From Candidatus Zixiibacteriota bacterium (lineage in GTDB: Bacteria > Zixibacteria > MSB-5A5 > UBA10806), in NCBI GenBank assembly GCA_003520965.1, contig DOTU01000101.1, positions 4,069-29,278 on the forward strand: 25,210 bases of DNA. Reading direction: 5' to 3'. How positions within the stretch are numbered: the stretch's first letter is position 1; the number at the start of each line of letters is the position of its first letter. Positions 1 through 24,356 of the stretch are shown here, in pieces. The notes under the pieces are model-generated. The model searched no databases, had not been told where the DNA came from, and worked only from the letters and a program-made list of their open reading frames with translations. A program made the translations under genes and the position numbers.

Positions 1-2088
1 TTTCATTATAAGACGCCTGTCTTAATGCGAGAGCAGGTTGTTGGGTATGCATATTTCGGCCTTAAAGAGCAATCACTTTTAATTGATATCAGCCATGCCC
101 GAAGGAATCTCTTTTTAATCAGCTTCATTGGCCTGGTGATTGGTTTTGTGGCGGTATTTGTCCTGTCCAACTACTTCGTAAAACCAATCCAAAAGCTCAC
201 CGAAGGCGTGATGCGAATAGGGGAGGGGAACCTCGATCAAAGCTTGCCTATCGAGGGCGCTGACGAGTTTTCTGATATCGCGCGGGCCTTTAATGAGATG
301 ACTACTAAGTTCAAAAAGGCCCAGGTTAACGTGGTTGAGCAGGAGCGCCTGCAAAAAGAGATGCAGGTTGCTCAAGAGATTCAACACGCACTACTGCCAC
401 GCCATTTCCCCGATATCGAAGGGTACGATATTTCCACAGTCTACCGTGCGGCCAAGGATGTCGGCGGCGATTACTTTGATTTTGTGCAAATCGATAAGGA
501 CGTTCTGGGAATTATAGTGGCCGATGTATCCGGTAAAGGTGTTCCGGGTTCGCTGGTTATGACCATGATTCGTACGGCGCTCCGCCTTGAGGCCAGAGAA
601 AACTACTCACCCACAGATATTTTAGGCAAGGTTAATCATTTTGTGACAGATGATGTCAAGCGCGGCATGTTTATCACTATCTTTTTCATCACCCTGGATA
701 GCGCCAAACGGACCATCTCTTACGCATCCGCCGGACATAATCCGATGATCCTCTACCGCAAAGATTCCGATAATTGCTATTTCCTCAATACACGTGGAAT
801 GCCCTTGGGGATTGCTCTTCCGGATGGCGTAAGCTTCGAAGATTCCCTGGAGTTTGATCGGGTTAAGCTCAAAAAAGACGATATGCTTGTGATCTACACT
901 GATGGTATCACCGAAGCCATGAATAAGGCAGACGAACAGTTCGGGAATGATCGTTTGATTCAATTTATAAAGTCACATGCTGAGCTTCCGCCTGAGGAAT
1001 TCACTAAGAAGCTTGATGCCGAGCTGCACCGCTTCACCGGTGGTGCGCCGCAGGGGGATGATATCACCCTGGTGGTAATTAAAGAAAAGATGATGCTCGA
1101 TGAGCTCGTTTTCGAAAAAAGAAAACGGCTTATGGAGATGGTGGAAAACGAGGGAATTCCCATCGAAGAAGCCTGTGCCCAGATGGGTATCTCACCTTCG
1201 ACTTTTTACAAATACCGCCGTCGCTGGCAAACGCTGGGCGATGTGGGGCTTCTCAACAAAAATCTGAGGGCCGATTCTGTCATCAAACAGATTTCCTACG
1301 AGGTTAGGAAAGAGATTCTGAAGCTGGTCCGTGAAAACCCAGATTTCGGCGCCAAACGGATTATGGATGAGCTAAATAAAAAAGGGATGGCCGATATTGA
1401 TCAACGTGGGCTATATGAGGAGCTTATACGTCTTCGTCTTAATACCAAAAAACTGCGTTTGGAATATGTGGATAGGGTCGGTGGCCTGACGCCGGAGATG
1501 AGCGCCGAGCTTGAAAAAGAGCTGCTCAAAGAAAATGAGAAAAAAGAGGATATCGATCGGGTCGAGTATCTTGAGGAAATAAAGAAAAGCCTCGAATCTA
1601 AAAAGGGTCAGCTTTCATCCACTGCGCGCGATCTTGTAGAAAAGCTTCAAAAAATGGAGCCGGTATTGGGTGATACTATTCTTTATGGCGAGATCGCGGC
1701 TGAACTCACCAAACTTAGAGGCGGTGAGGATATCGCCAAGCTATTCGAAAATATTATTCTCAAGATGGCCGATATGTCCAAAACGCAGGTCCCTGAGCCA
1801 ATCGCTATACCGACTGAAATCCCGGCGGAGCCTGTAGCTCCTCCAAATCTATTTGCTTTAGGCAATCCCAAAGCCAGCGTTGATGCAGAACCAGATCTCG
1901 CTAAGCCTGAACAGGAACAAAGCGCGGTGGAATCCAAGTTAGAGATATCGGAGTTAAGCAGAGATATATCGACGATTAACATAGTTGAATCTGCTTTCAA
2001 AGTTGAAAATGAAAGCGGAGAGGAAGAATCTAAATTTGATTGGGAGGAATATTCGCGCAAACTTACCGATAAGAATAAAGGGAAATGA
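1..2088 (+). CDS. HAMP + SpoIIE/PP2C (RsbU-like) Ser phosphatase with C-terminal transposase-type HTH domains and acidic tail; 5'-partial
   Basis: Frame is open from base 1 (FHYKTPVLMREQ...). It has a TM helix followed by HAMP (KPIQKLTEGVMRIGEGNL...DEFSDIARAFNEM) and PP2C motifs DVGGDYFD, IVADVSGKGVPGSLVM, AGHNP, YTDGITEA, DDITLV. An HTH region (GISPSTFYKYRRRW) follows. Confidence 0.9.
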   Translation, partial: FHYKTPVLMREQVVGYAYFGLKEQSLLIDISHARRNLFLISFIGLVIGFVAVFVLSNYFVKPIQKLTEGVMRIGEGNLDQSLPIEGADEFSDIARAFNEMTTKFKKAQVNVVEQERLQKEMQVAQEIQHALLPRHFPDIEGYDISTVYRAAKDVGGDYFDFVQIDKDVLGIIVADVSGKGVPGSLVMTMIRTALRLEARENYSPTDILGKVNHFVTDDVKRGMFITIFFITLDSAKRTISYASAGHNPMILYRKDSDNCYFLNTRGMPLGIALPDGVSFEDSLEFDRVKLKKDDMLVIYTDGITEAMNKADEQFGNDRLIQFIKSHAELPPEEFTKKLDAELHRFTGGAPQGDDITLVVIKEKMMLDELVFEKRKRLMEMVENEGIPIEEACAQMGISPSTFYKYRRRWQTLGDVGLLNKNLRADSVIKQISYEVRKEILKLVRENPDFGAKRIMDELNKKGMADIDQRGLYEELIRLRLNTKKLRLEYVDRVGGLTPEMSAELEKELLKENEKKEDIDRVEYLEEIKKSLESKKGQLSSTARDLVEKLQKMEPVLGDTILYGEIAAELTKLRGGEDIAKLFENIILKMADMSKTQVPEPIAIPTEIPAEPVAPPNLFALGNPKASVDAEPDLAKPEQEQSAVESKLEISELSRDISTINIVESAFKVENESGEEESKFDWEEYSRKLTDKNKGK

Positions 2089-2828
2089 TTAAATTAGCCA
2101 TCTTGACAGCCAAGGGGGGCACGGGTAAGACCACGACAGCCATTAATCTTGGCCACGGCCTCGCACTTTCGGGCCATCGTGTTCTTATCGTCGATTGCGA
2201 CCCGCAGGGCTCGGCATCGGCAGCTTTTGACGTTAATGGCGAACGCGGCCTGGCGGACCTGCTCTTAGATGGCAAAGTCGATATATTTCAGGTACGGCCC
2301 CATCTCTATTTGCTCCCGTCCGGGCGCAAACGGCTTGCTGAGCTTGAGATTAAGCTTGCAGCCCGCTCGGATCGCCTGGAACGGCTGAAAAACGCAATGG
2401 CGCGCCTCTCTGGTTGCGATTGGGTTATTTTGGATTGCTCTCCTTCCATAAATATTGTAAATTTGAACGCATTGGGGTTTGCGGAGAAGCTCTTGATCCC
2501 ATCCTCGCTCGATTATTTTTCCCTGGAGGGGGTCAAATCGACAATTGAGCTTTCAAACGATATTACGGCTAATGGCGCAGGTAAGCTTGAGATACTTGGC
2601 ATTTTGCCGACATTTTATGATAAGCGAACAAGCGTTTCGCGATTGGCACTTGAGACTCTGAGAAACACTTATGGCAAGATGGTATTCGATACCGAAATCA
2701 GACTTAACGCTGAAATTAAGAAATCGCAGTGGTATAGAAAAACCGTTTTCGAATTTGCTCCTTATTCTCATGGAGCGTACGATTATTTCAAATTAGCAAG
2801 GGAAGTTCTGGAAAGGATACAGGTTTGA
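2085..2828 (+). CDS. ParA/Soj/MinD-family ATPase
   Basis: Deviant Walker A KGGTGKTT, then VLIVDCDPQG, VILDCSPS and LGILPTFYD. ATGA overlap with the upstream stop. Confidence 0.92.
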   Translation: MIKLAILTAKGGTGKTTTAINLGHGLALSGHRVLIVDCDPQGSASAAFDVNGERGLADLLLDGKVDIFQVRPHLYLLPSGRKRLAELEIKLAARSDRLERLKNAMARLSGCDWVILDCSPSINIVNLNALGFAEKLLIPSSLDYFSLEGVKSTIELSNDITANGAGKLEILGILPTFYDKRTSVSRLALETLRNTYGKMVFDTEIRLNAEIKKSQWYRKTVFEFAPYSHGAYDYFKLAREVLERIQV

Positions 2829-2834
2829 GGAGAT

Positions 2835-3566
2835 ATGAGCGATATTAAAATCTCTCTCGACAGTTCGGGGCCCAAAGGGGAGATATCGGTGGTCAGAGTC
2901 GATGGCGTTATTGATACTATGACCGCCACTGACCTCGAAAAGGTAATGAACTCCCTTTTGGAGCGGAAACGATACAATGTCATCATCGATTTGGGTGGAG
3001 TCGATTACATCTCCTCGGCCGGATGGGGCATATTCATCTCCAATATCAGGGAGATCCGGCAGCATTCGGGAGATATCAAACTGGCCCGTATGATTCCCAA
3101 CGTTTATGAAATATTCGAACTGCTGGAATTCGACAGCATTCTGAAGGCATTCGACAGCGTAGAGAAGGCAAAAACTGATTTTGATGGTCTGAAAAAGAGC
3201 CCAGCTGAAGGCGAGGGGGTCGCGGTTATGGCGGAATCCGCTATCAAGAGCGATACGGTAAAAGGCATTCCGCGGGCGCCAGAGGCTCAAATCAGTTCTC
3301 CGTCGCCGCAGCTGCTAAGCGATCCTTCTGAAATCAAGGTAGTAGTCGATGAACCTATGGTTGTGCCTCAGTTGCGCGATATTATCCTTGAGATGATTTC
3401 AAAAGATCCGTTCCTGACAATCTCGGAAATAAAACGAGAGATCCAAAGAAAGCATCCATCATTAAGAATCGGATGGTGGAGAATCTGGGGTGTTTTAAAA
3501 CGGGAAGGACTACTAACCAGGAAAAATCGTTTTCGCAAGGCCAGGCTTAAATCCGGAGGTAATTGA
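2835..3566 (+). CDS. STAS-domain anti-sigma factor antagonist (RsbV/SpoIIAA-like) with C-terminal HTH
   Basis: VVRVDGVIDTMTA...IIDLGGVDYISSAGWG; Ser61 aligns with the phosphorylated Ser58 of SpoIIAA. A Pro/Ser linker leads to an approximately 60 aa HTH-like domain. RBS GAGGAG. Confidence 0.88.
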   Translation: MSDIKISLDSSGPKGEISVVRVDGVIDTMTATDLEKVMNSLLERKRYNVIIDLGGVDYISSAGWGIFISNIREIRQHSGDIKLARMIPNVYEIFELLEFDSILKAFDSVEKAKTDFDGLKKSPAEGEGVAVMAESAIKSDTVKGIPRAPEAQISSPSPQLLSDPSEIKVVVDEPMVVPQLRDIILEMISKDPFLTISEIKREIQRKHPSLRIGWWRIWGVLKREGLLTRKNRFRKARLKSGGN

Positions 3567-3569
3567 CAC

Positions 3570-5405
3570 ATGCCAAACTCCAGGCTTTGGCCTATAGTCC
3601 TGTTAGTATTATTTTTCTGTCTTTTGGTCATTGGCATAGCTTTATTATTTAAAACAGCCTGGATCACCGTACTATTGACTGCTTTGGTTTTGTTGGTTTC
3701 TGCACTAATTATTATTTCCTCTATTCGTGCTTCGCGAGATATTACCATTCTTTCTAAAATTTCAGTTCCGAAAAAGCCCGATGATAATATTTTAGCCTGT
3801 AAGCTATTAACCGAAATTGACCTGGCGCCTGGCGATAAAAAATCGCTGGCCATGAAGGCCTCTGAGGTGCTCAGAGAGAAATTTCAGTTGGAACGATTCG
3901 CCGTCTTCTTTAAAGAAAATGACAAGTACGTCTTAAGAGTCTACTCCGGATTGAACAAGGGCGATCTCGCTATTCCGGCAGCTAATAAATTTAGTCCGTC
4001 TCTTGTGGAAAATATCCAAACCGGCGCCCTTTCGAATAACGAAAGCGATTACCAATTAGCTTTCAAGCGGACCGGGTTCAATTTCGAATCTTCAACGGTA
4101 GCGTTTGCATATTCCTGGGGGAAAACCCGTTCGGTATATTTGGTTGGAGATGATCCCAAGGGTCGTTTCTCGGAGGTTGCCAAGGATTTGGAATTCAACC
4201 GAATTTTCTGGCCGGGTTTGGAAAACGATCTCAAATTAAATCAGAAGCTCTATGAGCGGGGTCAGGAAAACCGTGAGCTTACTCAACTTTTGGAGCAGGC
4301 AAAGAGGGATGTTAGCGAGTTAAATAACGAGCTGAAAAATAGGTTGTTAGATCTAAAGGCTTTTGTTAAAATCTCGAACGACCTTTACTCCTTATTTGAT
4401 GAAACGGAGCTTTTCTCACGGCTCAAAAAGACTGTCTGTGAAAAACTAGGTGCTGTATCTGCCCAGATCCTTGTGCCATCCGGAGACGGGCATTTTATTC
4501 CAGCTGGCGAGGCTGAGCAATCGGAAACAATTCTGTCACTTGATTCCGATTCGGAACTGGCTGAGCTTTTATCCCAATCAGCCAGGCCGGTTCTTCTGCC
4601 TCTCGCCGGTACAGGCTACAAGCATGATGAGCCATTTCTGCGCGCTGCTTTGGGGGCCAACTTTCAGATAGCTTCATCTATTAAAGCCGATGGGAAACCC
4701 GCCTGTATTCTGCTTGTTTCCCAGAAAATGGATAAAACCCAGTACACTAGCCTGGAACTTGATTTCCTTTATATTATCTCGAATATCGCTTCCCTGGCGC
4801 TTGATAATATTCACCAATATAGCACTATCGAAAAGCTATCTTATACCGACAGCATGACCCAGATCTATAACTACCGTTATTTTTACAAACGTCTCAGCGA
4901 GGAAGTTTTGCGTGCCAAACGGTATGACCGTGAGTTGGCGCTGGTCATTCTTGATATTGACAATTTCAAATCTTTTAATGATAATTACGGCCATCAGGCG
5001 GGAGATCTTGTTTTAAGGCAGTTATCTGATCTGATTACGAAAACCATCCGGTCAATCGATGTTGTCAGCCGGTATGGAGGAGAGGAGTTCTGCATTATCA
5101 TGCCCGATACGGGAATTGGTGATTGCGAGACTTTTATCGAAAGGCTGCGTTGCCAGATCGCCGATTTCAAGTTCGAATCCGAACTTTTCCCGCAGGGCGG
5201 TAAAATCTCGGTTTCTGTTGGAGGAGCAGTTTATCCGCATTATGCTTCCATGCCGGATCGGCTGATCTATTGTGCGGATATGGCTCTCCTTAAGGCCAAA
5301 TCCCTGGGGCGGAACCGGGCCGTAATGTATGAACCAGAAGCGCCTGTTGATTCAAAATCCATGGAAGGGGGATTTAATGAGAGCCATCAAGAATCTATTC
5401 TTTAG
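3570..5405 (+). CDS. Membrane-anchored GAF/coiled-coil diguanylate cyclase (GGDEF)
   Basis: Two N-terminal TM helices, a coiled coil and a GAF-like region. Catalytic motifs LDIDNFKSFNDNYGHQAGD and SRYGGEEF; I-site RSID (RxxD) lies five residues upstream of GGEEF. Confidence 0.92.
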   Translation: MPNSRLWPIVLLVLFFCLLVIGIALLFKTAWITVLLTALVLLVSALIIISSIRASRDITILSKISVPKKPDDNILACKLLTEIDLAPGDKKSLAMKASEVLREKFQLERFAVFFKENDKYVLRVYSGLNKGDLAIPAANKFSPSLVENIQTGALSNNESDYQLAFKRTGFNFESSTVAFAYSWGKTRSVYLVGDDPKGRFSEVAKDLEFNRIFWPGLENDLKLNQKLYERGQENRELTQLLEQAKRDVSELNNELKNRLLDLKAFVKISNDLYSLFDETELFSRLKKTVCEKLGAVSAQILVPSGDGHFIPAGEAEQSETILSLDSDSELAELLSQSARPVLLPLAGTGYKHDEPFLRAALGANFQIASSIKADGKPACILLVSQKMDKTQYTSLELDFLYIISNIASLALDNIHQYSTIEKLSYTDSMTQIYNYRYFYKRLSEEVLRAKRYDRELALVILDIDNFKSFNDNYGHQAGDLVLRQLSDLITKTIRSIDVVSRYGGEEFCIIMPDTGIGDCETFIERLRCQIADFKFESELFPQGGKISVSVGGAVYPHYASMPDRLIYCADMALLKAKSLGRNRAVMYEPEAPVDSKSMEGGFNESHQESIL

Positions 5406-6438
5406 AACATTCTTGATACAAACCATTATCGCTTTATCTGCGTTGATATTATTGGGCCAATTCATCGCATTGGGCGGAGCTATTGCTCAAACACAAACAG
5501 AGCAGCAAACTAATGAAAATGATCAGGCTCAAGCCAAAAATGAATTATACCTTATTGGAAATCTGGATAGATTATCGGTAACTTTTTGGCAGCAACCCGA
5601 TCTCAATCGTGAGGTTAGGGTTGATGAGAACGGTATGATCAGTTTACCGGTTATCGGCGAAATCAAGGCCGCGGGGCAAACGCCCAATGAGCTATCCAAA
5701 AAAATTATCCAGCAAATGAGTATCTACAATACTCCGGTGTCCCAGGCGACTGTCAATGTCGTAGAGTTTAATTCTCGAAGCGTAGTAGTATCCGGGCATG
5801 TGTTGACCCCCGGCAGTCGTCGATACGAGAAAATTCCCGATGTATGGCAGGTCATCCTCGACGCGGGTGGTCCGACATCCGATGCCGATCTCTCTCGAGT
5901 CAGTATAGTTAGAAAAGAGGGCGGTAAATCGAATATTATCAATGTTGACTTGTATAAAATTATTCAATCGGGCGATCTCAGCAAAGCTCCTCAGCTTCAA
6001 CCCGGGGATTTGGTCAATGTGCCTCTTTCGACTCTGGGCTCCAATTTGGCTTTTCCCAGCCAGCAGAAATTTGAGGGTAGGAATATTTTCTTCGTCTTCG
6101 GCCAGGTTACAGAACAGGGACCCCGGAACCTTGAGGACGGGATGGACGTTTTAGACGGCATTGCGGCCGCTAAGGGCTTTACCATAGATGCTGATCTAAA
6201 AAATGTTACTGTTATAATGAAAGATGCGAAATATTCAAATGTGGTAAGACTCAATATGTCCAGATATATAAAAACCGGCCAGCCAGCCAGAATGATGTTG
6301 CATCCCGAGGATACCATAGTCGTACCGGCTAAGGGTGGGTTTTTCCGAGCCATGTCAAATCTAAATACGGTCGTACCGATTTTGGGAACTATGGCCACCA
6401 TGATAATTCTAATCAGGGATATCAGACGCAATCCTTGA
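5377..6438 (+). CDS. Polysaccharide export protein (OPX/Wza-like; Poly_export + SLBB domains)
   Basis: RVDENGMISLPVIGEIKAAGQTPNEL, SLBB repeats (VVVSGHVLTPG, FVFGQVTEQG) and LQPGDLVNVP / LHPEDTIVVP. Start re-set to ATG 5377 after SD GGGGGA; signal peptide present. Confidence 0.88.
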   Translation: MRAIKNLFFRTFLIQTIIALSALILLGQFIALGGAIAQTQTEQQTNENDQAQAKNELYLIGNLDRLSVTFWQQPDLNREVRVDENGMISLPVIGEIKAAGQTPNELSKKIIQQMSIYNTPVSQATVNVVEFNSRSVVVSGHVLTPGSRRYEKIPDVWQVILDAGGPTSDADLSRVSIVRKEGGKSNIINVDLYKIIQSGDLSKAPQLQPGDLVNVPLSTLGSNLAFPSQQKFEGRNIFFVFGQVTEQGPRNLEDGMDVLDGIAAAKGFTIDADLKNVTVIMKDAKYSNVVRLNMSRYIKTGQPARMMLHPEDTIVVPAKGGFFRAMSNLNTVVPILGTMATMIILIRDIRRNP

Positions 6439-8084: not shown

Positions 8085-9203
8085 ATGCCGCCGATTGGAT
8101 TCACAGATAAATTTCGTCGCCTGGGACGGGACTACCTGTTGCAAACATCATTCAGCGAAGCCCGCAAGATGATTGTTTGCTCGCTATTCCACTCAGGCCA
8201 ACTAATTAGTAGCCGCGCATTTCCCCTGACTGATGAGCTTGAGGGTGACGCGTTGCTTACTAAGGTTTCTCAGAAACATGAATATTGTCTTTCTGATATT
8301 ACCGCTCTGCTTGGTTTGGCGGAGAATATGCGCGAGTTGGAGAAACCGGAACTTATCGAAAAGCTTGGGCGAACCCTATGCTCCCGGGAGCTTTACGATG
8401 AGGGCTGCGAACTCCTCACTTTCGCCGTACAGCGGTATCCGGAGGTTCCCGGATTGCGCCTTGCGTTGGGACGGATATACCATGCTAAACGGCAGTTTGA
8501 AGAGGCCAGAGAGCAACTATCACAAGCGGTGGAGTTGGCGCCAAGTTATCCCGATTATAGAAATATCCTCGGTGTTACTTATTTGAAATTGAACAAGCCG
8601 GTAGCTGCTATTGATGAATTTCGAAAGGCTGCCGAATTAAATATTTACTACGAAGAAGCCTATTTCAATCTCGGCCTGGGTTATATCTTAAATGGTATCG
8701 TTAAAGAGGATTTTAACCTGGCTAAAAACCTCCTCGGTAATTGCCAGGAAGCTTTTCAGAAGGCCGCGTTGTTCAATCCAGCCTATATTACCGAAAATTA
8801 CGAAAAGGGTATTGCGCTTCTCAGCGAGGGGAATCTTGAGCAATCCTATGAAATTCTCACCCAAGTTGGGGGTGATGTTGTAAGTCACGCTAACGATGAG
8901 AAACTCCTTGAGATGTATATGCGCTGTATTCACGGACAAAATGGCCTGACTGAGGCCGGAATTAAGCAATATGTCGATGAGTTAAGCGAGCTTCTCAAGG
9001 CAAATCCCGGCCACGCCGATCTGCACAACGAGTTGGGTATGGCCTACACCATCATGAGTAAATTCCTAAACAATAAAGCAATGGAGCACTTCCAGGAAGC
9101 CTTGCGGATAAATCCCGGTTTCGCAAGGGCCGTCAGAAACTTAAAGCTGTCACAAAATGACCTTAAGGGCTTTGAGGTACTGCTGGAAGCGATTATACGA
9201 TGA
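8085..9203 (+). CDS. Tetratricopeptide-repeat protein (cytoplasmic, no signal peptide)
   Basis: Repeated TPR consensus (LALGRIYHAKRQFEEAREQLSQAVELAPSY; NILGVTYLKLNKPVAAIDEFRKAAELN; NELGMAY...EALRINPGF). Confidence 0.85.
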   Translation: MPPIGFTDKFRRLGRDYLLQTSFSEARKMIVCSLFHSGQLISSRAFPLTDELEGDALLTKVSQKHEYCLSDITALLGLAENMRELEKPELIEKLGRTLCSRELYDEGCELLTFAVQRYPEVPGLRLALGRIYHAKRQFEEAREQLSQAVELAPSYPDYRNILGVTYLKLNKPVAAIDEFRKAAELNIYYEEAYFNLGLGYILNGIVKEDFNLAKNLLGNCQEAFQKAALFNPAYITENYEKGIALLSEGNLEQSYEILTQVGGDVVSHANDEKLLEMYMRCIHGQNGLTEAGIKQYVDELSELLKANPGHADLHNELGMAYTIMSKFLNNKAMEHFQEALRINPGFARAVRNLKLSQNDLKGFEVLLEAIIR

Positions 9204-9919
9204 GAAAACCAGTTTCTTTGTTGTCGCTTTACCATAAAGAATCATCGATGGGAACCGAGTTTCGCCGTCTTTACGCTAATATTAAAAGCAAAAACCGCGA
9301 CCAAAACCTGCAAAGCTTGCTGGTCACATCAGCTACGGTGGGCGAGGGTAAATCGCTAACCAGCAGCCTTTTGGCTATTACTATTGCCGAACTTACCAAG
9401 CTTAAAGTCGCCTTAGTTGATTTCGATATGCGGCGTCCAAGGATAGCCCAATATTTCGATCTTGAAAATGAAAATGGCGTAGCCGATGTTTTAACGGGCA
9501 AATTATCACTAAAAGCCGTTTCACGGAAAACTACGGTCCCCAACCTAACTGTTGTTCCTGCTGGTCGTTTGGACGTTCTACCCACTGACGTTTTAGAGCA
9601 TGAGCGTGTCTCCAATTTCTTTCAGGAACTCAAATTTTACTTCGATCAAGTTATCGTAGATTCTCCGCCGGTAATACCAGTTTCCGACCCGATGCTTATT
9701 TCTGAGCATGTCGATGGGGTTATCATGGTAGTCAGGGGCGGTTCTACTCAAAGAGAAGTTGTCAGCAGGGCATCTAATTTATTGATCAATGCCAAGATAA
9801 ACGTCATCGGAGTTGTCCTGAATGATTATGAGGAAGTTCTGCCTTACTATTACAAAGAACGCTACTATGGGTATCAATATTACCACAAGGATTTGAAGGA
9901 AAACAAATCTTCATCCTAA
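9200..9919 (+). CDS. CpsD/CapB-family bacterial tyrosine kinase (BY-kinase)
   Basis: VTSATVGEGKSLT (Walker A), LVDFDMRRP (A'), VIVDSPP (B) and a C-terminal Tyr cluster YYYKERYYGYQYY. ATGA overlap with the TPR gene. Confidence 0.93.
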   Translation: MRKPVSLLSLYHKESSMGTEFRRLYANIKSKNRDQNLQSLLVTSATVGEGKSLTSSLLAITIAELTKLKVALVDFDMRRPRIAQYFDLENENGVADVLTGKLSLKAVSRKTTVPNLTVVPAGRLDVLPTDVLEHERVSNFFQELKFYFDQVIVDSPPVIPVSDPMLISEHVDGVIMVVRGGSTQREVVSRASNLLINAKINVIGVVLNDYEEVLPYYYKERYYGYQYYHKDLKENKSSS

Positions 9920-17372: not shown

Positions 17373-17786
17373 ATGAGAACTGGAAACAAGAAAGGCTTTA
17401 CGCTGATTGAGCTGATGATCGTGGTGGTCATTATCGGCATCCTGGCCGCTTTAGCAATACCCCGGTTTATGCGCTCAACTACCAAAGCCAAACAATCGGA
17501 AGCCAAGCAGCTTCTTAAGCAGATTTACACCATGCAGCACGCCTACAGACAGGAATTCAACGCTTACTGCCTGAACGGCATAACGGCAGCCGCGGGTAGC
17601 GCCAACTTCGCCAGAATAGGCGTCGACGTGGGAGCATCTGCTCGCTACAGCTACGCGATGGTTTCCGCAGCTAACACCTTCACCTGTACAGCCACAGCCA
17701 ATCTGGATGACGATGCCACAACTGACACCTGGACCATTACCGAAACAGGTACTTTAACCTGTACCATTGACGACTCGGTAACTTGA
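17373..17786 (+). CDS. pilA: Type IVa pilin, copy 1
   Basis: Class III signal KKG|FTLIELMIVVVIIGILAALAIP with Glu5; RBS GAGGT; 129 aa mature. Confidence 0.93.
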   Translation: MRTGNKKGFTLIELMIVVVIIGILAALAIPRFMRSTTKAKQSEAKQLLKQIYTMQHAYRQEFNAYCLNGITAAAGSANFARIGVDVGASARYSYAMVSAANTFTCTATANLDDDATTDTWTITETGTLTCTIDDSVT

Positions 17787-17806
17787 TCGTAAGCTGGACC
17801 TACAGC

Positions 17807-17830
17807 AGGGGGATGGTTCTCCATCCCCCT
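17807..17830 (+). terminator. Stem-loop between pilin 1 and pilin 2 (weak terminator or mRNA stabiliser)
   Basis: Perfect 10 bp stem AGGGGGATGG-TTCT-CCATCCCCCT followed by an imperfect U tract (TATTGATTT). Confidence 0.6.
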
Positions 17831-17876
17831 TATTGATTTCCAAAATGATGATAGTTCAACCATAAAGGAGACGATA

Positions 17877-18293
17877 ATGCAAAGGGGAAATAGAAAAGCC
17901 GGCTTCACGCTAATCGAACTGATGATCGTGGTGGTCATTATCGGCATCCTGGCGGCACTGGCTATACCTCGGTTCATGCGTTCAACAACCAAAGCCAAAC
18001 AGTCTGAAGCCAAGCAACTTCTAAAGCAGATTTACACTATGCAACACGCTTACAGGCAGGAATTCAATTCTTACTGCCTGAATGGTATAACAGCAGCTGC
18101 GGGTAGCGCCAACTTCGCCAGAATAGGCGTTGACGTGGGAGCATCTGCACGCTACAGCTACGCCATGGTTTCTGCAGCCAATACATTTACTTGCACAGCT
18201 ACAGCCAACCTGGATGATGACGCCACCACCGATACCTGGACCATCACTCAGGCAGGTACGTTAACCTGCACCATCGATGATTCGGTAACGTAA
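17877..18293 (+). CDS. pilA: Type IVa pilin, copy 2 (3 aa differences from copy 1 in the mature protein)
   Basis: KAG|FTLIELMIVVVIIG; RBS AAGGAG. Confidence 0.93.
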   Translation: MQRGNRKAGFTLIELMIVVVIIGILAALAIPRFMRSTTKAKQSEAKQLLKQIYTMQHAYRQEFNSYCLNGITAAAGSANFARIGVDVGASARYSYAMVSAANTFTCTATANLDDDATTDTWTITQAGTLTCTIDDSVT

Positions 18294-18307
18294 GATTTAA
18301 TGGCTTT

Positions 18308-18337
18308 GGGGGGTGAGTTAGCGCCCCCCTTTTTTTT
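18308..18337 (+). terminator. Intrinsic terminator after pilin 2
   Basis: GGGGGGTG-AGTTAG-CGCCCCCC (8 bp, one G-U pair) followed by T8. Confidence 0.82.
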
Positions 18338-18366
18338 GCTAGATTGACAACAGGATTGAGGCTGCC

Positions 18367-18792
18367 ATGAACACGAAGAAGAAAAATAATTCGGCTGGTT
18401 TTACACTGATTGAGTTGATGATTGTTGTAGTAATTATCGGCATCCTCGCCGCTCTGGCAGTCCCCAGATTCATGAAGGTCGCATCGAAATCCAAACAATC
18501 GGAAGCCAAGCAACTATTGAAGCAGATATACACAATGCAGGGGGCATATTTCGGTCTTTATGATACCTACTGCCTTAACGGTGTCCAGGCTTCCACGGCA
18601 GCGCCATTTGCCTTCGCCCAAATTCATGTGGATGTAATGTTACCGGCAAGATATGTTTATAGTATGGTTTCCACGCAGAATACTTTTACGTGCACCGCGA
18701 CAGCCAATTTAGATACCGATCCCACGGTTGATACCTGGTTGATAACTAATACCGGTACTCTTGTTAATACCATTGATGACTCTCAAGATTAG
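18367..18792 (+). CDS. pilA: Type IVa pilin, divergent copy 3 (about 69% identical to copy 1)
   Basis: SAG|FTLIELMIVVVIIG; hand alignment gives about 90/130 identities. Confidence 0.9.
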   Translation: MNTKKKNNSAGFTLIELMIVVVIIGILAALAVPRFMKVASKSKQSEAKQLLKQIYTMQGAYFGLYDTYCLNGVQASTAAPFAFAQIHVDVMLPARYVYSMVSTQNTFTCTATANLDTDPTVDTWLITNTGTLVNTIDDSQD

Positions 18793-18862: not shown

Positions 18863-19645
18863 ATGCATGACCCTCTTTACTTGACTTTCGTTTTGTTATT
18901 TGGACTGGCTTTCGGCAGCTTCTTTAACGTCGTAATCTATCGCCTGCCAAACGGCATGTCTCTTTTAAGGCCCCCCTCGCATTGCCCCAAATGCGATAAC
19001 CTGATAAAATCCTATGATAACATTCCTATCCTGTCATTTCTCATACTAAGAGGTAAATGCCGGCACTGTAAGGCGAGTATTTCCTGGCGTTACCCCGCGG
19101 TGGAGGCCTTAACCGGGGTCTTGGCGGTTGTGGCAATTTATCATTTTGGTTTTACGATTAAGGGGATTGAGGCTGCTCTGCTATCCCTGCTGTTCGTGCC
19201 GATATTTTTTATTGATATGGAGCACTGGATTATCCCCGATTCCCTGGATCTTCCCTGGATTCTCGTGGGACTGGCGCTGGCATTTGTGTCAGGCGGTTTC
19301 GTTGGTTGGAAAGGGGCGTTAATCGGCGCTGTAGTTGGCGGAGGTCTATTTTTCCTGATTATGCAACTCGGGAAAGTCGCTTTCAAAAAAGAGGCAATGG
19401 GGTTTGGGGATGTTAAATTCGCGGCTATGTTAGGGGCTTTTTTGGGAGGCTGGAAACTACTTTTAATCATACTCCTGGCGTCATTTCTTGGTTCAGTTGT
19501 CGGAGTGACATTAATTATCTCCTCCAATAAAAAGGGAAAACCCACTTATGTGCCTTTCGGGCCATTTCTGGTTATTGCCGCTCTTATCGCCATATATTTT
19601 GGCGATAGCATTATCGGCGCATACTTGAATTTAATCCGTCCTTAA
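18863..19645 (+). CDS. pilD: Prepilin peptidase / N-methyltransferase (A24A)
   Basis: GSFFNVVIYRLP, CPKC...CRHC Zn motifs, FIDMEHWIIPD, MGFGDVKF, VPFGPFL. Confidence 0.96.
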   Translation: MHDPLYLTFVLLFGLAFGSFFNVVIYRLPNGMSLLRPPSHCPKCDNLIKSYDNIPILSFLILRGKCRHCKASISWRYPAVEALTGVLAVVAIYHFGFTIKGIEAALLSLLFVPIFFIDMEHWIIPDSLDLPWILVGLALAFVSGGFVGWKGALIGAVVGGGLFFLIMQLGKVAFKKEAMGFGDVKFAAMLGAFLGGWKLLLIILLASFLGSVVGVTLIISSNKKGKPTYVPFGPFLVIAALIAIYFGDSIIGAYLNLIRP

Positions 19646-21508: not shown

Positions 21509-22870
21509 TTACGCGCCGCTCACTGTCATACTCGCCACTCTATACGTTGGTGAAGCCACCGATCCCAAAAAGAGCAGATCACTTCCGATCATATCAACCT
21601 TCATCAGCAAATCAAGCATGTTAGCCGCGACAGTAATCCCCTCTACCGGATACGCAAGCTTCCCGTTTTCGATCCACAGCCCTGCGCCCCCCAATGAAAA
21701 ATCTCCGGTCACAACATTAGCGCCAAACCCCATTAGATTTGTCAGGTAGAGTCCGCTCTTTATGGAGCCTATAATTTCATTGAATGACGATTTCCCCGCT
21801 TGCAAATAAAAATTGAGCGGACCAATAGATGGCAAAGATGAATATTCTCGTCGCGCATTACCGGTCGATTTTGTCTTCGCTTTTCGAGCGGTATAGGAAT
21901 CGTAAAGGTAGCTTTGAAGAACGCCCTTCGAAATGACCTCTTTCCTATTTGTCGCTATGCCTTCTCCGTCAAATGGTGATGAAGCCAACCCCTTAGGCAT
22001 CAAGCCATCATCAACAATCGTAACAATTTCGGTAGCCACTCTCTGGCCAAGCTTATTTAGAAGAAATGAGCCGCCCTTGAAAATGGCATCCCCATCGAGC
22101 GCCCCGACCAGATTTCCCAAAAGCGCCGCGCCGGTGACATTATCGAAAACCACTGGCACTACCGCCGTTGATGGCGTACGGGCCCCGAGCATTCGAACGG
22201 TACGTTCGGCCGCGATTGTGGCTACATCCTGTGGTGAATGTAGATCATTAACAAACCGTGCCGTCGATTGCCAGCCGTTGGATTGAAGCTTGCCGTTCTC
22301 TGAAGCTACGGGATTAACGGTAAGATGACAGAATGTCGACGCGAAGGCGTTGCATTCTCCGGCCGTGTTGGCCATTACCACCGTTCCCTGCCCGTCATAA
22401 AATCCGACTCCATCCGAATTTGTGATCCGCTTGTCATAATCGAACATGGTCCGCTCGGCTTCCAGGCAAAGATCAATCTTTTTCTGGCCGGGGATCAAAT
22501 CAACCTCAGGATCATAGATTTGCAGATCAAGCGTCTTTTTTATCTTTTTCTGATCAGGAAGGCCATTATACTCGTCGGCTGAGACCTCCTGCGCAAGTGA
22601 TATCGCCTGCTCCACTGCCAATTTAATTGCGCCCTTCGAGAAATCCGAACTGTAGCTGAATCCAAGTTTCTTATTTTTAAATACGCGCAAACCGAACCCC
22701 TGGGAGATCGATTCTTTCAAGTTCTCGATCTTTTCCATTCTGGTCGTAATCTCGGATTCCCGTCCCATCTCGATATAGACATCCGCCTCATCCGCGCCGG
22801 ATCGTTTGGCAGCTTCGATTATATCGCCGGCGAGTTTTTCTAATTCAACCTGATTTAATTGATTCACCAT
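21509..22870 (-). CDS. pmbA: PmbA/TldE metalloprotease subunit
   Basis: GFGLRVFKNKKLGFSYS, DDG...SSPFDGEG, SYLYDSYTARK, STGNA, VTGDFS, PVEGIT. Start re-set to ATG 22870 after RBS GGAGG. Confidence 0.92.
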   Translation of the reverse strand: MVNQLNQVELEKLAGDIIEAAKRSGADEADVYIEMGRESEITTRMEKIENLKESISQGFGLRVFKNKKLGFSYSSDFSKGAIKLAVEQAISLAQEVSADEYNGLPDQKKIKKTLDLQIYDPEVDLIPGQKKIDLCLEAERTMFDYDKRITNSDGVGFYDGQGTVVMANTAGECNAFASTFCHLTVNPVASENGKLQSNGWQSTARFVNDLHSPQDVATIAAERTVRMLGARTPSTAVVPVVFDNVTGAALLGNLVGALDGDAIFKGGSFLLNKLGQRVATEIVTIVDDGLMPKGLASSPFDGEGIATNRKEVISKGVLQSYLYDSYTARKAKTKSTGNARREYSSLPSIGPLNFYLQAGKSSFNEIIGSIKSGLYLTNLMGFGANVVTGDFSLGGAGLWIENGKLAYPVEGITVAANMLDLLMKVDMIGSDLLFLGSVASPTYRVASMTVSGA

Positions 22871-22883
22871 TGATTTAACCTCC

Positions 22884-24356
22884 CTATACCCTGGTACCAC
22901 CGACAGTCATCTCGGAAATCTTACAAGTTGGCATACCAACTCCAACCGGTACTCCCTGGCCGTCTTTGCCACATGTCCCTACTCCGGTATCATATTCAAG
23001 ATCTTTACCGACCATGACTACTCTCTGCAATATCTCCGGTCCCGATCCAATCAGATTAGCCCCCTTAACCGGATATGTTATTTGGCCATCCTCTATCATA
23101 TAACCTTCGGTTACCTGAAATACGAACTGCCCATTGGATATGTCAACCTGTCCGCCGCCGAAAGTTTTAGCGTAAAAGCCTTTTTTAACAGATTTCATAA
23201 TCTCTTCCGGATCGTGTTCACCGGCAGTCATAAAAGTATTGGTCATACGGGGAACAGGAAAATATCGGTATGATTCCCGTCTGCCCGAGCCCGTAGATTC
23301 CAGGCCCATTAGTTTGCCATTGAGTTTATCTACCATGTAGCCTTTCAAAATTCCATTCTCGATCAGCATTTTTCGAGCTCCAGGTTCGCCTTCATCATCG
23401 ATATTTATCGAGCCGCGAAGATGGGGGAGTGTGCCATCATCAACAACGCTAACCAACTCTGAGGCCACTCTTTGGCCGATTTTGCCGGCAAAAAGCGATG
23501 TCTCCTTGCGATTAAAATCAGCTTCCAGACCGTGACCGACAGATTCATGCAGCAGCACCCCAGCCCAGCCATTTCCTAACACAACAGTCTGTGGTCCTGC
23601 CGGGGCCTCCTGAGCGCGAAGCATAACTGTGGCAGTCCGCACCGCTTCTTTGGCGAATAGCTCCGGAGTCATCCTATCGAAATATTCGAACCCGATTCTC
23701 CCGCCGCCGCCGTGACGTCCTATTTGCTTATTACCGTTATCTTCCACAAGCGTCATAACATTAAACCGGAGCATTATTCTCTGGTCAGCGGCGAATAGGC
23801 CATCCGAGTTGGCGATCAGTACCACCTTCATGGCATCCCACAATGAACCCTCTACTTGATAAACTCGTTTATCTTCGTCGAACGCCGCCTTATTGGCTCT
23901 CCAAAGGAGATCGGCGCGCTGCTTGACTTCAATCTCATCCGGATAAATTTTTATCGGGGAGTTATTAGGAACGTCAACTGAACGCAAATTGAGCTTGTGA
24001 TTCGCCCGTCCGGCGCCATCGGCAATCATTGAGGCTGTTTTTGCGGCGTGTAAAAGATCAGCCATTTCGAAACGCTCCGAATACGCGTACCCCGTTTTCT
24101 CGCCATTAATAACCCTTATGCCGATCCCCTGCGTAATACCAGATTGTGCCTGCCGAATCTTATTCTCTTCAAGAGAAAGGCCATTTACAACCGAATACTC
24201 GGCGTAGACCTCGGCAAATTCGCCCCCCCGGCTCAAAGCCTGGGAGATTAACTTCTCAATATTCTCCGCTGATAACAGACCGGTGATAGCGTCGAAACCC
24301 GGCTTGACTATTTTCGCTACCGTTGCGGTATTTAATCCTTCGTTCATTTTTTTCAT
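22884..24356 (-). CDS. tldD: TldD metalloprotease subunit
   Basis: GIGIRVINGEKTGYAY, HExxxH LLHESVGHGLEAD, DDEG, GSGRRESY...PRMTNT, GxCGKDGQ.VPV. Start may be ATG 24347. Confidence 0.95.
   Translation of the reverse strand: MKKMNEGLNTATVAKIVKPGFDAITGLLSAENIEKLISQALSRGGEFAEVYAEYSVVNGLSLEENKIRQAQSGITQGIGIRVINGEKTGYAYSERFEMADLLHAAKTASMIADGAGRANHKLNLRSVDVPNNSPIKIYPDEIEVKQRADLLWRANKAAFDEDKRVYQVEGSLWDAMKVVLIANSDGLFAADQRIMLRFNVMTLVEDNGNKQIGRHGGGGRIGFEYFDRMTPELFAKEAVRTATVMLRAQEAPAGPQTVVLGNGWAGVLLHESVGHGLEADFNRKETSLFAGKIGQRVASELVSVVDDGTLPHLRGSINIDDEGEPGARKMLIENGILKGYMVDKLNGKLMGLESTGSGRRESYRYFPVPRMTNTFMTAGEHDPEEIMKSVKKGFYAKTFGGGQVDISNGQFVFQVTEGYMIEDGQITYPVKGANLIGSGPEILQRVVMVGKDLEYDTGVGTCGKDGQGVPVGVGMPTCKISEMTVGGTRV

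Follow-up and report, generated by a model that had tools for sequence, protein, structure and literature searches.

Partner switches are known to act via sigma factors, cyclases or enzymes. In the HptB-HsbR-HsbA-HsbD pathway of Pseudomonas aeruginosa a STAS protein controls the cyclase HsbD, and in the BgrSTUWV-BgrR system of Sinorhizobium meliloti a STAS protein controls the cyclase BgrR (both PMC8457831); the STAS-like protein SiaC controls the cyclase SiaD in the SiaABCD system of P. aeruginosa (PMC8457831). A partner-switching-like module of Anabaena controls a heterocyst polysaccharide enzyme (bioRxiv 10.64898/2026.04.08.717354). Here we describe a related operon in a stretch of 25,210 nucleotides (nt) of contig DOTU01000101.1 (hereafter the window) from Candidatus Zixiibacteriota bacterium, whose 2.6-Mb metagenome-assembled genome (MAG; GCA_003520965.1) is about 70% complete. 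Two of its proteins, a sensor kinase/phosphatase ("the enzyme") and its putative STAS substrate, carry additional domains of the helix-turn-helix (HTH) type. The comparative analysis shows that the C-terminal domain of the STAS protein (C-dom) goes with STAS and exopolysaccharide (EPS) loci, whereas the HTH region of the enzyme, together with the acidic tail that follows it, goes with a ParA-like ATPase.

The equipment of a partner switch was found: a STAS protein with a conserved phosphorylatable serine, a PP2C/SpoIIE phosphatase and an HATPase_c_2 kinase, the last recognized via orthologues and at L001:123-509, upstream of the window in the source genome. The likeness to the Hsb and Bgr systems lies in a STAS protein whose phosphorylation state depends on an RsbW-type kinase and a PP2C phosphatase, in a neighbouring or downstream GGDEF effector and in a biofilm or polysaccharide output. 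The operon differs from them because its enzyme is a membrane-bound sCache/HAMP sensor instead of a response regulator and bears an IS481-type HTH region with an acidic tail, because it encodes a ParA-like ATPase and because its STAS protein has an extra HTH-type C-dom. Like SiaABCD, it combines at one locus a membrane phosphatase of the HAMP-PP2C type with a kinase, a small switch protein and a cyclase, and SiaA and SiaD are among the best NCBIfam matches of the phosphatase and the cyclase of the window, at scores that fall far short of the equivalog cutoffs (90 vs 700 bits for SiaA, 146 vs 290 bits for SiaD). SiaC is a DUF1987 protein, whereas the switch protein here is a canonical STAS protein, and SiaABCD has neither HTH modules nor a ParA-like gene. 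A further parallel is HenR/All4160 of Anabaena, in which STAS phosphorylation controls exopolysaccharide formation without a sigma factor (bioRxiv 10.64898/2026.04.08.717354), but in the present operon an HTH-type domain is attached to STAS; no sigma factor gene is present in the cassette. With its fused kinase/phosphatase sensor, its cyclase and its polysaccharide export genes, the operon resembles the HsbR-HsbA-HsbD, BgrSTUWV-BgrR and SiaABCD circuits. A limited literature search returned no account of STAS-HTH fusions, of PP2C-HTH fusions or of this Zixibacteria operon, and none of a kinase/phosphatase with a domesticated transposase DNA-binding head and its own ParA-like ATPase.

The operon comprises five co-directional, closely packed genes within the first 6.4 kb of the window. 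Its features are listed below in window coordinates, with lengths in amino acids (aa); AF2 denotes AlphaFold2.

1..2088, plus strand: sensor kinase/phosphatase gene, 3' part, 695 aa (Pfam; tblastn of orthologue P0122 onto L001)
163..306, plus strand: HAMP domain, aa 55-102 (PF00672, 52 bits)
499..1083, plus strand: PP2C/SpoIIE phosphatase domain, aa 167-361 (PF07228, 173.9 bits)
1117..1260, plus strand: HTH1 of the IS481-type bipartite region, aa 373-420 (HTH_23/28/29, IS481 model, hhalign, AF2 helices)
1297..1455, plus strand: HTH2, HTH_32-like, aa 433-485 (HTH_32 27.5 bits, below cutoff; AF2 helices 73-85, 91-100 and 108-117 of the model)
1456..2085, plus strand: acidic tail, aa 486-695, net charge -18 (conservation profile, alignment, charge count)
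2085..2828, plus strand: ParA/MinD-like ATPase, 247 aa (Pfam AAA_31 and CbiA)
2835..3566, plus strand: STAS protein with C-terminal domain, 243 aa
2877..3170, plus strand: STAS domain, aa 15-112 (PF01740, 63.4 bits; TIGR00377, 61.8 bits vs cutoff 53.45)
3183..3365, plus strand: variable low-complexity linker, aa 117-177 (orthologue alignment)
3366..3563, plus strand: C-dom, HTH_32/Tc3_2-like three-helix domain with a basic fourth helix, aa 178-243 (alignment, profiles, AF2)
3570..5405, plus strand: membrane GAF-like diguanylate cyclase with GGEEF active site and RxxD I-site (PF00990, 144 bits; TIGR00254)
5329..6438, plus strand: Wza-like polysaccharide export protein, first gene of the EPS export block (Poly_export, SLBB)

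Distribution and gene context of the two modules

The comparison set consisted of 285 genomes of the phylum from 20 families. C-dom is present in 227 of them (171 of the 198 good-quality genomes), with one copy each and in 16 of the 20 families. The enzyme HTH region was detected at E < 1e-40 in 57 genomes of families f1, f2, f3, f11, f12 and f13. Orthologues of the ParA-like protein (E <= 1e-50) occur in 56 genomes, all from these six families, whereas the remaining 14 families have none; three genomes are discordant between the HTH and the ParA-like matches, and all three are incomplete. The weaker matches to the enzyme HTH region are IS481 transposases, of which one genome has nine copies, and two diverged proteins of family f18.

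The order kinase/PP2C-HTH, ParA-like, STAS-C-dom, GGDEF and Wza recurs in divergent genomes with overlapping or near-abutting genes. Gene order was inspected at 36 loci. The long enzyme with HTH region and tail is followed by the ParA-like, STAS-C-dom, GGDEF and Wza genes in ten distinct genomes, and the ParA-like gene is located directly downstream in all ten. At 19 loci, by contrast, the enzyme has 630-695 aa and ends at the PP2C domain, and a ParA-like gene is missing, yet C-dom is still present, either fused to the STAS domain or as a separate open reading frame (ORF) of 55-100 aa between the STAS and GGDEF genes. This division into a STAS gene (about 130 aa) and a C-dom gene is found in many genomes of f7 and f10, single-contig ones included (L018-L020, L029, L030, L036-L039). 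The two f18 proteins (L044:1388-4042 and L045:8995-11646) are intermediates: their HTH region is diverged, their tail is shorter and lacks the FDxxEYxKKL-like motif, and a ParA-like gene is missing; in one of the two genomes the enzyme gene lies away from the STAS cassette. Outside the phylum, in a Calditrichia MAG and one other contig, the STAS-C-dom gene is placed between a priming sugar transferase gene and a Poly_export gene, with no cyclase and no kinase/phosphatase nearby. Several distant STAS-C-dom proteins are encoded on contigs too short for gene context.

The different distributions and gene contexts show that C-dom tracks STAS and EPS loci and that the enzyme HTH-tail tracks the ParA-like ATPase. 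In our reading, the two HTH domains were acquired independently and not as a matched pair.

The C-terminal domain of the STAS protein

The STAS loop motif DYISSAGWG is invariant in 21 orthologues and includes the predicted phospho-acceptor Ser61 (nt 3015-3017), assigned by analogy with Ser58 of SpoIIAA. C-dom itself is a conserved domain of about 65 aa with a net charge of +11 and the invariant residues DPF, GWW and R..R..R. Its AF2 model (predicted local distance difference test, pLDDT, 85) has three helices and a basic, Arg-rich fourth helix. All of the top structural neighbours are DNA binders of the HTH or winged-helix type. At E <= 0.001, Foldseek found no PDB match for either this model or that of the enzyme HTH region, and the Foldseek lists are informative only through their make-up. 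HTH_Tnp_Tc3_2 was detected below threshold in 15 of 21 C-dom orthologues (E < 1, best 3.4e-4).

A profile search with C-dom over 1.8 billion representatives recovered 125 proteins. Beyond STAS-C-dom proteins and short ORFs, these were proteins with duplicated HTH_23/28 + HTH_32 units, in which the matches fall at the HTH_32 positions (E 1e-5 to 1e-4); the hhalign comparison with one protein, P0340, gave a probability of 75% and an E value of 2.5e-5. The profile comparison with the HTH_32 domain of IS481 reached E 0.059. A feature search of the ESM Atlas with C-dom yielded no usable match, and profile searches of the source genome found no second copy of either the enzyme HTH region or C-dom, only weak matches (E 8e-4 and worse).

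The closest non-STAS relatives of C-dom are the HTH_32 units of GT2 glycosyltransferases of 600-1500 aa that carry two tandem, bipartite transposase-type HTH_23/28+HTH_32 units at the N-terminus (P0342 at L052:3954-7544, P0329, P0343, P0337, P0333 and P0345). In one case the gene immediately downstream encodes an exosortase (EpsH)-like protein.

Four properties of C-dom fit a DNA-binding output element under control of the STAS switch, namely its fused or split occurrence, the HTH fold, the charge of +11 and its constant place at the head of EPS export genes. A different role is conceivable: C-dom may be a protein- or ligand-binding adaptor that couples the STAS protein to the EPS machinery or the cyclase, with a Wza/Wzc-type exporter, a glycosyltransferase, the GGDEF protein or cyclic di-GMP (c-di-GMP), bound via the Trp and Arg residues, as candidate partners. 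The most constant neighbour of C-dom across phyla is indeed a polysaccharide export gene and not a regulator target, the nearest relatives outside STAS proteins form the N-terminal part of GT2 glycosyltransferases, in one case beside the exosortase-like gene, and with its invariant GWW and R..R..R C-dom would be well equipped for stacking on a nucleotide ligand and for ionic interactions with it or with an acidic partner. However, the fold and all structural neighbours are those of DNA-binding HTH and winged-helix domains, the parent family binds DNA in transposases and the strong positive charge fits nucleic-acid binding, and we hold the adaptor role to be a real but rather unlikely possibility.

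The relation of C-dom to the enzyme bears on a second alternative, which the initial annotation had put forward: enzyme and substrate would share one HTH module that pairs them or gathers both on the same DNA in a nucleoid-tethered partner switch. Its hand alignment of C-dom and HTH2 with 14 identities was reproduced in count and register, and the similarity is weak. The local alignment score of 35 was reached by 100 of 5000 shuffles (p ~0.02), and of all parts of the 695-aa enzyme it is HTH2 that gives C-dom its best local match; profile-profile comparison returned the same register (E 0.001, probability 21%). In a pairwise BLASTP comparison of the segments that alignment did not appear, only another match of 25 aa (E 0.073). 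The helix boundaries of the two domains, predicted independently with AF2, coincide under the alignment. We conclude that C-dom is an HTH_32/Tc3_2-type domain of the same superfamily as HTH2 but not its sister, and the proposed homology of the two domains is retained at this level; that they are each other's closest relatives is contradicted by the profile search with C-dom, which at E <= 1e-3 met other HTH_32 proteins and not the PP2C-HTH family.

A shared module would agree with the common type, register and helix positions of the two domains and with the encoding of both proteins in one tight operon, and an electrostatic contact between the acidic enzyme tail (-18) and the basic C-dom (+11) is conceivable in lineages that have both. 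The comparative data speak against it: C-dom occurs in about 170 genomes without the enzyme HTH region, next to kinase/phosphatases that end at PP2C, as a free-standing ORF and at loci without a kinase/phosphatase nearby. Both fusions are conserved and not unique to the source genome, but comparative genomics splits the two modules, so the earlier interpretation is only partly supported, and we regard a matched pair as improbable.

The transposase-type region of the sensor and the ParA-like ATPase

Full-length orthologues of the enzyme have 940-980 aa and consist of an HATPase_c_2 kinase domain (RsbW-type Ser kinase, aa 13-138 of the orthologue polypeptide), a transmembrane segment, sCache, HAMP, PP2C, the bipartite HTH region and the tail. 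Because these orthologues open with an RsbW-type kinase before sCache, HAMP and PP2C, the enzyme is predicted to be a fused kinase/sensor/phosphatase; in HsbR, kinase and phosphatase domains are likewise part of one polypeptide. The original label "RsbU-like" did not cover this fused architecture, and the initial annotation gave no weight to the ParA-like gene that separates the enzyme gene from the STAS gene. The junction cannot be read in the source MAG itself, since two masked runs just upstream of the window (L001:511-862, 352 nt; L001:1129-1500, 372 nt) far exceed the matching gaps of about 96 and 87 nt in an 81%-identical orthologue, and the frame is shifted. With these overlong, frame-changing runs, the kinase might also be a separate gene in the source MAG.

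The bipartite HTH region as a whole spans aa 373-485 (nt 1117-1455). Within aa 373-462, Pfam recovers HTH_23 (36.8 bits, cutoff 24.6), HTH_28 (34.1, cutoff 25) and HTH_29 (29.5, cutoff 28.1), which bears out the suggested HTH_28 and HTH_29 assignments, but not that to HTH_32, which stays under its cutoff in the window enzyme (27.5 vs 33.7 bits) and is about at the cutoff, still below, in two of four scanned orthologues (33.4-33.8 vs 33.7 bits). Positions 1-111 of the NCBIfam IS481 transposase model NF033577 align to aa 373-484 of the enzyme (E 7e-16), and when the orthologue profile was compared by hhalign with a genuine IS481 transposase, present in multiple copies in a related genome and carrying HTH_28+HTH_32+rve, the probability was 97.5% (E 5.9e-12). 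The AF2 model shows two three-helix units, and the top Foldseek rows are TnsB, the paired domains of Pax6 and Pax5, MuA, IstA and Tc3. No rve/DDE domain was found by Pfam in the 695-aa enzyme or in four full-length orthologues, whereas real IS481 copies carry rve and rve_3. With Pfam, NCBIfam, hhalign and AF2 in agreement, a two-HTH transposase-type region after PP2C without a DDE core, as originally described, is confirmed.

The similarity to IS481 transposases thus concerns their N-terminal HTH_28+HTH_32 region and the fold of bipartite transposase and paired domains, and the profile and fold evidence shows the region to be the DNA-binding head of an IS481-type transposase. Unlike the transposases, this region lacks the catalytic core, is present in a single copy, fixed inside a signalling gene, and is conserved across six families. 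Sequence identity of the HTH region across orthologues is 40-83%, with 20 invariant residues, among them residues of the recognition helix; the tail comprises a conserved segment after the HTH region and a C-terminal acidic ..FDxxEYxKKL-like motif. Multi-copy IS481-type transposases with HTH_28, HTH_32, LZ_Tnp_IS481 and rve occur in the same phylum (L053:187-1362 in genome G009 with nine copies; L054:57-1220), and it is plausible that such elements were the source of the domesticated HTH region. These real copies, up to nine per genome and with the same N-terminal HTH, might also suggest that the region is an inert relic of an IS481 insertion, a 5' transposase fragment fused to the gene, but its in-frame maintenance in about 57 genomes of six families at the stated identity and with the 20 invariant residues, the lack of any rve remnant and the always identical position of the junction to PP2C make this highly implausible.

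The start of the ParA-like gene overlaps the stop codon of the kinase/phosphatase gene. Its product has a deviant Walker A motif, KGGTGKTT, at aa 10-17, which is invariant in 28 orthologues, and it remains below the NCBIfam family cutoffs (82.9 bits vs 180 for ParA_partition, 77.7 vs 157.85 for BcsQ). A second P-loop ATPase of the ParA/MinD superfamily, distinct from this one, is encoded at 9200-9919 of the window and matches the polysaccharide tyrosine autokinase domain model TIGR01007 (138.8 bits, cutoff 108).

ParA-type ATPases work with adaptor partners, as in ParA-ParB or in orphan ParA-like positioning systems such as PpfA-TlpT or BcsQ. The arrangement found here is similar in that a deviant Walker A ATPase stands beside, and is co-inherited with, an HTH segment with a charged tail. 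It differs from ParA-ParB, because no ParB-type domain was found in the cassette and no repeated (centromere-like) site in the window, nor was a parS site identified, and because a membrane kinase/phosphatase, through its C-terminus, would serve as the adaptor. Co-inheritance, adjacency and the start/stop overlap suggest that the HTH-tail and the ParA-like protein form a functional pair, and by analogy the HTH-tail is a candidate adaptor for the ATPase. When the ParA-like protein was modelled together with the last 335 aa of the enzyme, the complex scored 0.47, against 0.00 for the best control; 58 of 80 solved complexes and 2 of 110 mismatched pairs reached the mark, and passing scores of 0.60 or less comprised only 7 of the 80 solved complexes, yet both passing mismatches. 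The complex runs agree in at least 36% of contacts, with a partner pLDDT of at least 56. Modelling thus lends weak support to a contact between the ParA-like protein and the HTH-tail. A link of the enzyme to DNA or the nucleoid is plausible, since its HTH region and tail are co-inherited with a ParA-like ATPase; this part of the proposed nucleoid-tethered switch survives, whereas its basis in matched domains does not.

The proposed circuit and its genomic setting

We propose a partner switch controlling c-di-GMP synthesis and EPS export, with two independent transposase-derived HTH add-ons. The membrane sensor, in which an RsbW-type Ser kinase, sCache, HAMP and a PP2C phosphatase would be combined in one polypeptide, would determine whether Ser61 of the STAS protein is phosphorylated, and the STAS protein, we infer, targets the neighbouring GGEEF cyclase, the EPS genes or both. 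The first add-on would be the IS481-type bipartite HTH with its acidic tail of about 210 aa, presumably gained and retained with the downstream ParA-like gene; it may work with the ATPase in the manner of ParB/ParA, and the pair would tie the signalling complex of the membrane to DNA or the nucleoid or set its position with respect to them. The second is C-dom, an output element that would be under the STAS phospho-switch and most likely binds DNA near the EPS operon. The cyclase, whose motifs RSID...GGEEF are visible in the translation and which is predicted to be an active GGDEF cyclase, and C-dom are by analogy the candidate outputs of the switch. For the circuit as a whole we see the chances as evenly divided.

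Several observations weigh against it. The organisms are uncultured; in the source MAG the masked bases hide the kinase-phosphatase junction. C-dom is under the Pfam gathering threshold (HTH_Tnp_Tc3_2, 17.8-18.2 vs 31.5 bits), its VIA-align hits (Z 5-6 to many winged-helix/HTH proteins) are not family-specific, its third helix is Trp-rich (GWWxIW), which is unusual for a recognition helix, and the fusion of many of its relatives to membrane GT2 glycosyltransferases fits protein or ligand binding equally well. A repeat scan of the window revealed no candidate operator repeat. As to the first add-on, the complex prediction gives weak support and no interface, and two f18 genomes have the diverged HTH region but no ParA-like gene. 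The six families with this add-on may form one clade and the co-occurrence of ParA-like gene and HTH-tail may reflect a single gain, in which case the counts overstate independence, because six families could represent one evolutionary event.

The operon is continued by EPS genes: 3' of the Wza-like gene follow genes for a Wzz-like protein, a TPR protein, a BY-kinase-like ATPase, a priming sugar transferase and surface proteins. Homologues of the kinase/phosphatase, ParA-like and STAS proteins bear Zixibacteria names. Farther downstream, three tandem pilin-like genes (17394-18539), whose 5' parts are 81-90% identical (repeat families D1-D3), are followed by a prepilin peptidase gene (18863-19645). 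A gene pair for PmbA/TldD-type metallopeptidases on the minus strand (21509-24356) is convergent with the EPS/pilin block.

A more far-reaching idea, which we put forward tentatively and consider doubtful in its entirety, is that STAS-HTH, fused or as two proteins, is a transcription factor switched by Ser phosphorylation, and that in one clade its kinase/phosphatase is held at the nucleoid by the IS481 head and the ParA-like protein, which would join input, switch and target DNA at the EPS locus. Natural variants, namely fused and split C-dom, the HTH-tail with ParA present or absent, and the f18 intermediate, make these ideas directly testable. Should C-dom prove to bind DNA, STAS would stand next to REC as a phospho-receiver with direct control over transcription. 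The HTH-tail and the ParA-like protein, if they do act as a pair, would represent a new cargo type for ParA-like positioning systems and also a clear case of a reused bacterial transposase DNA-binding domain.

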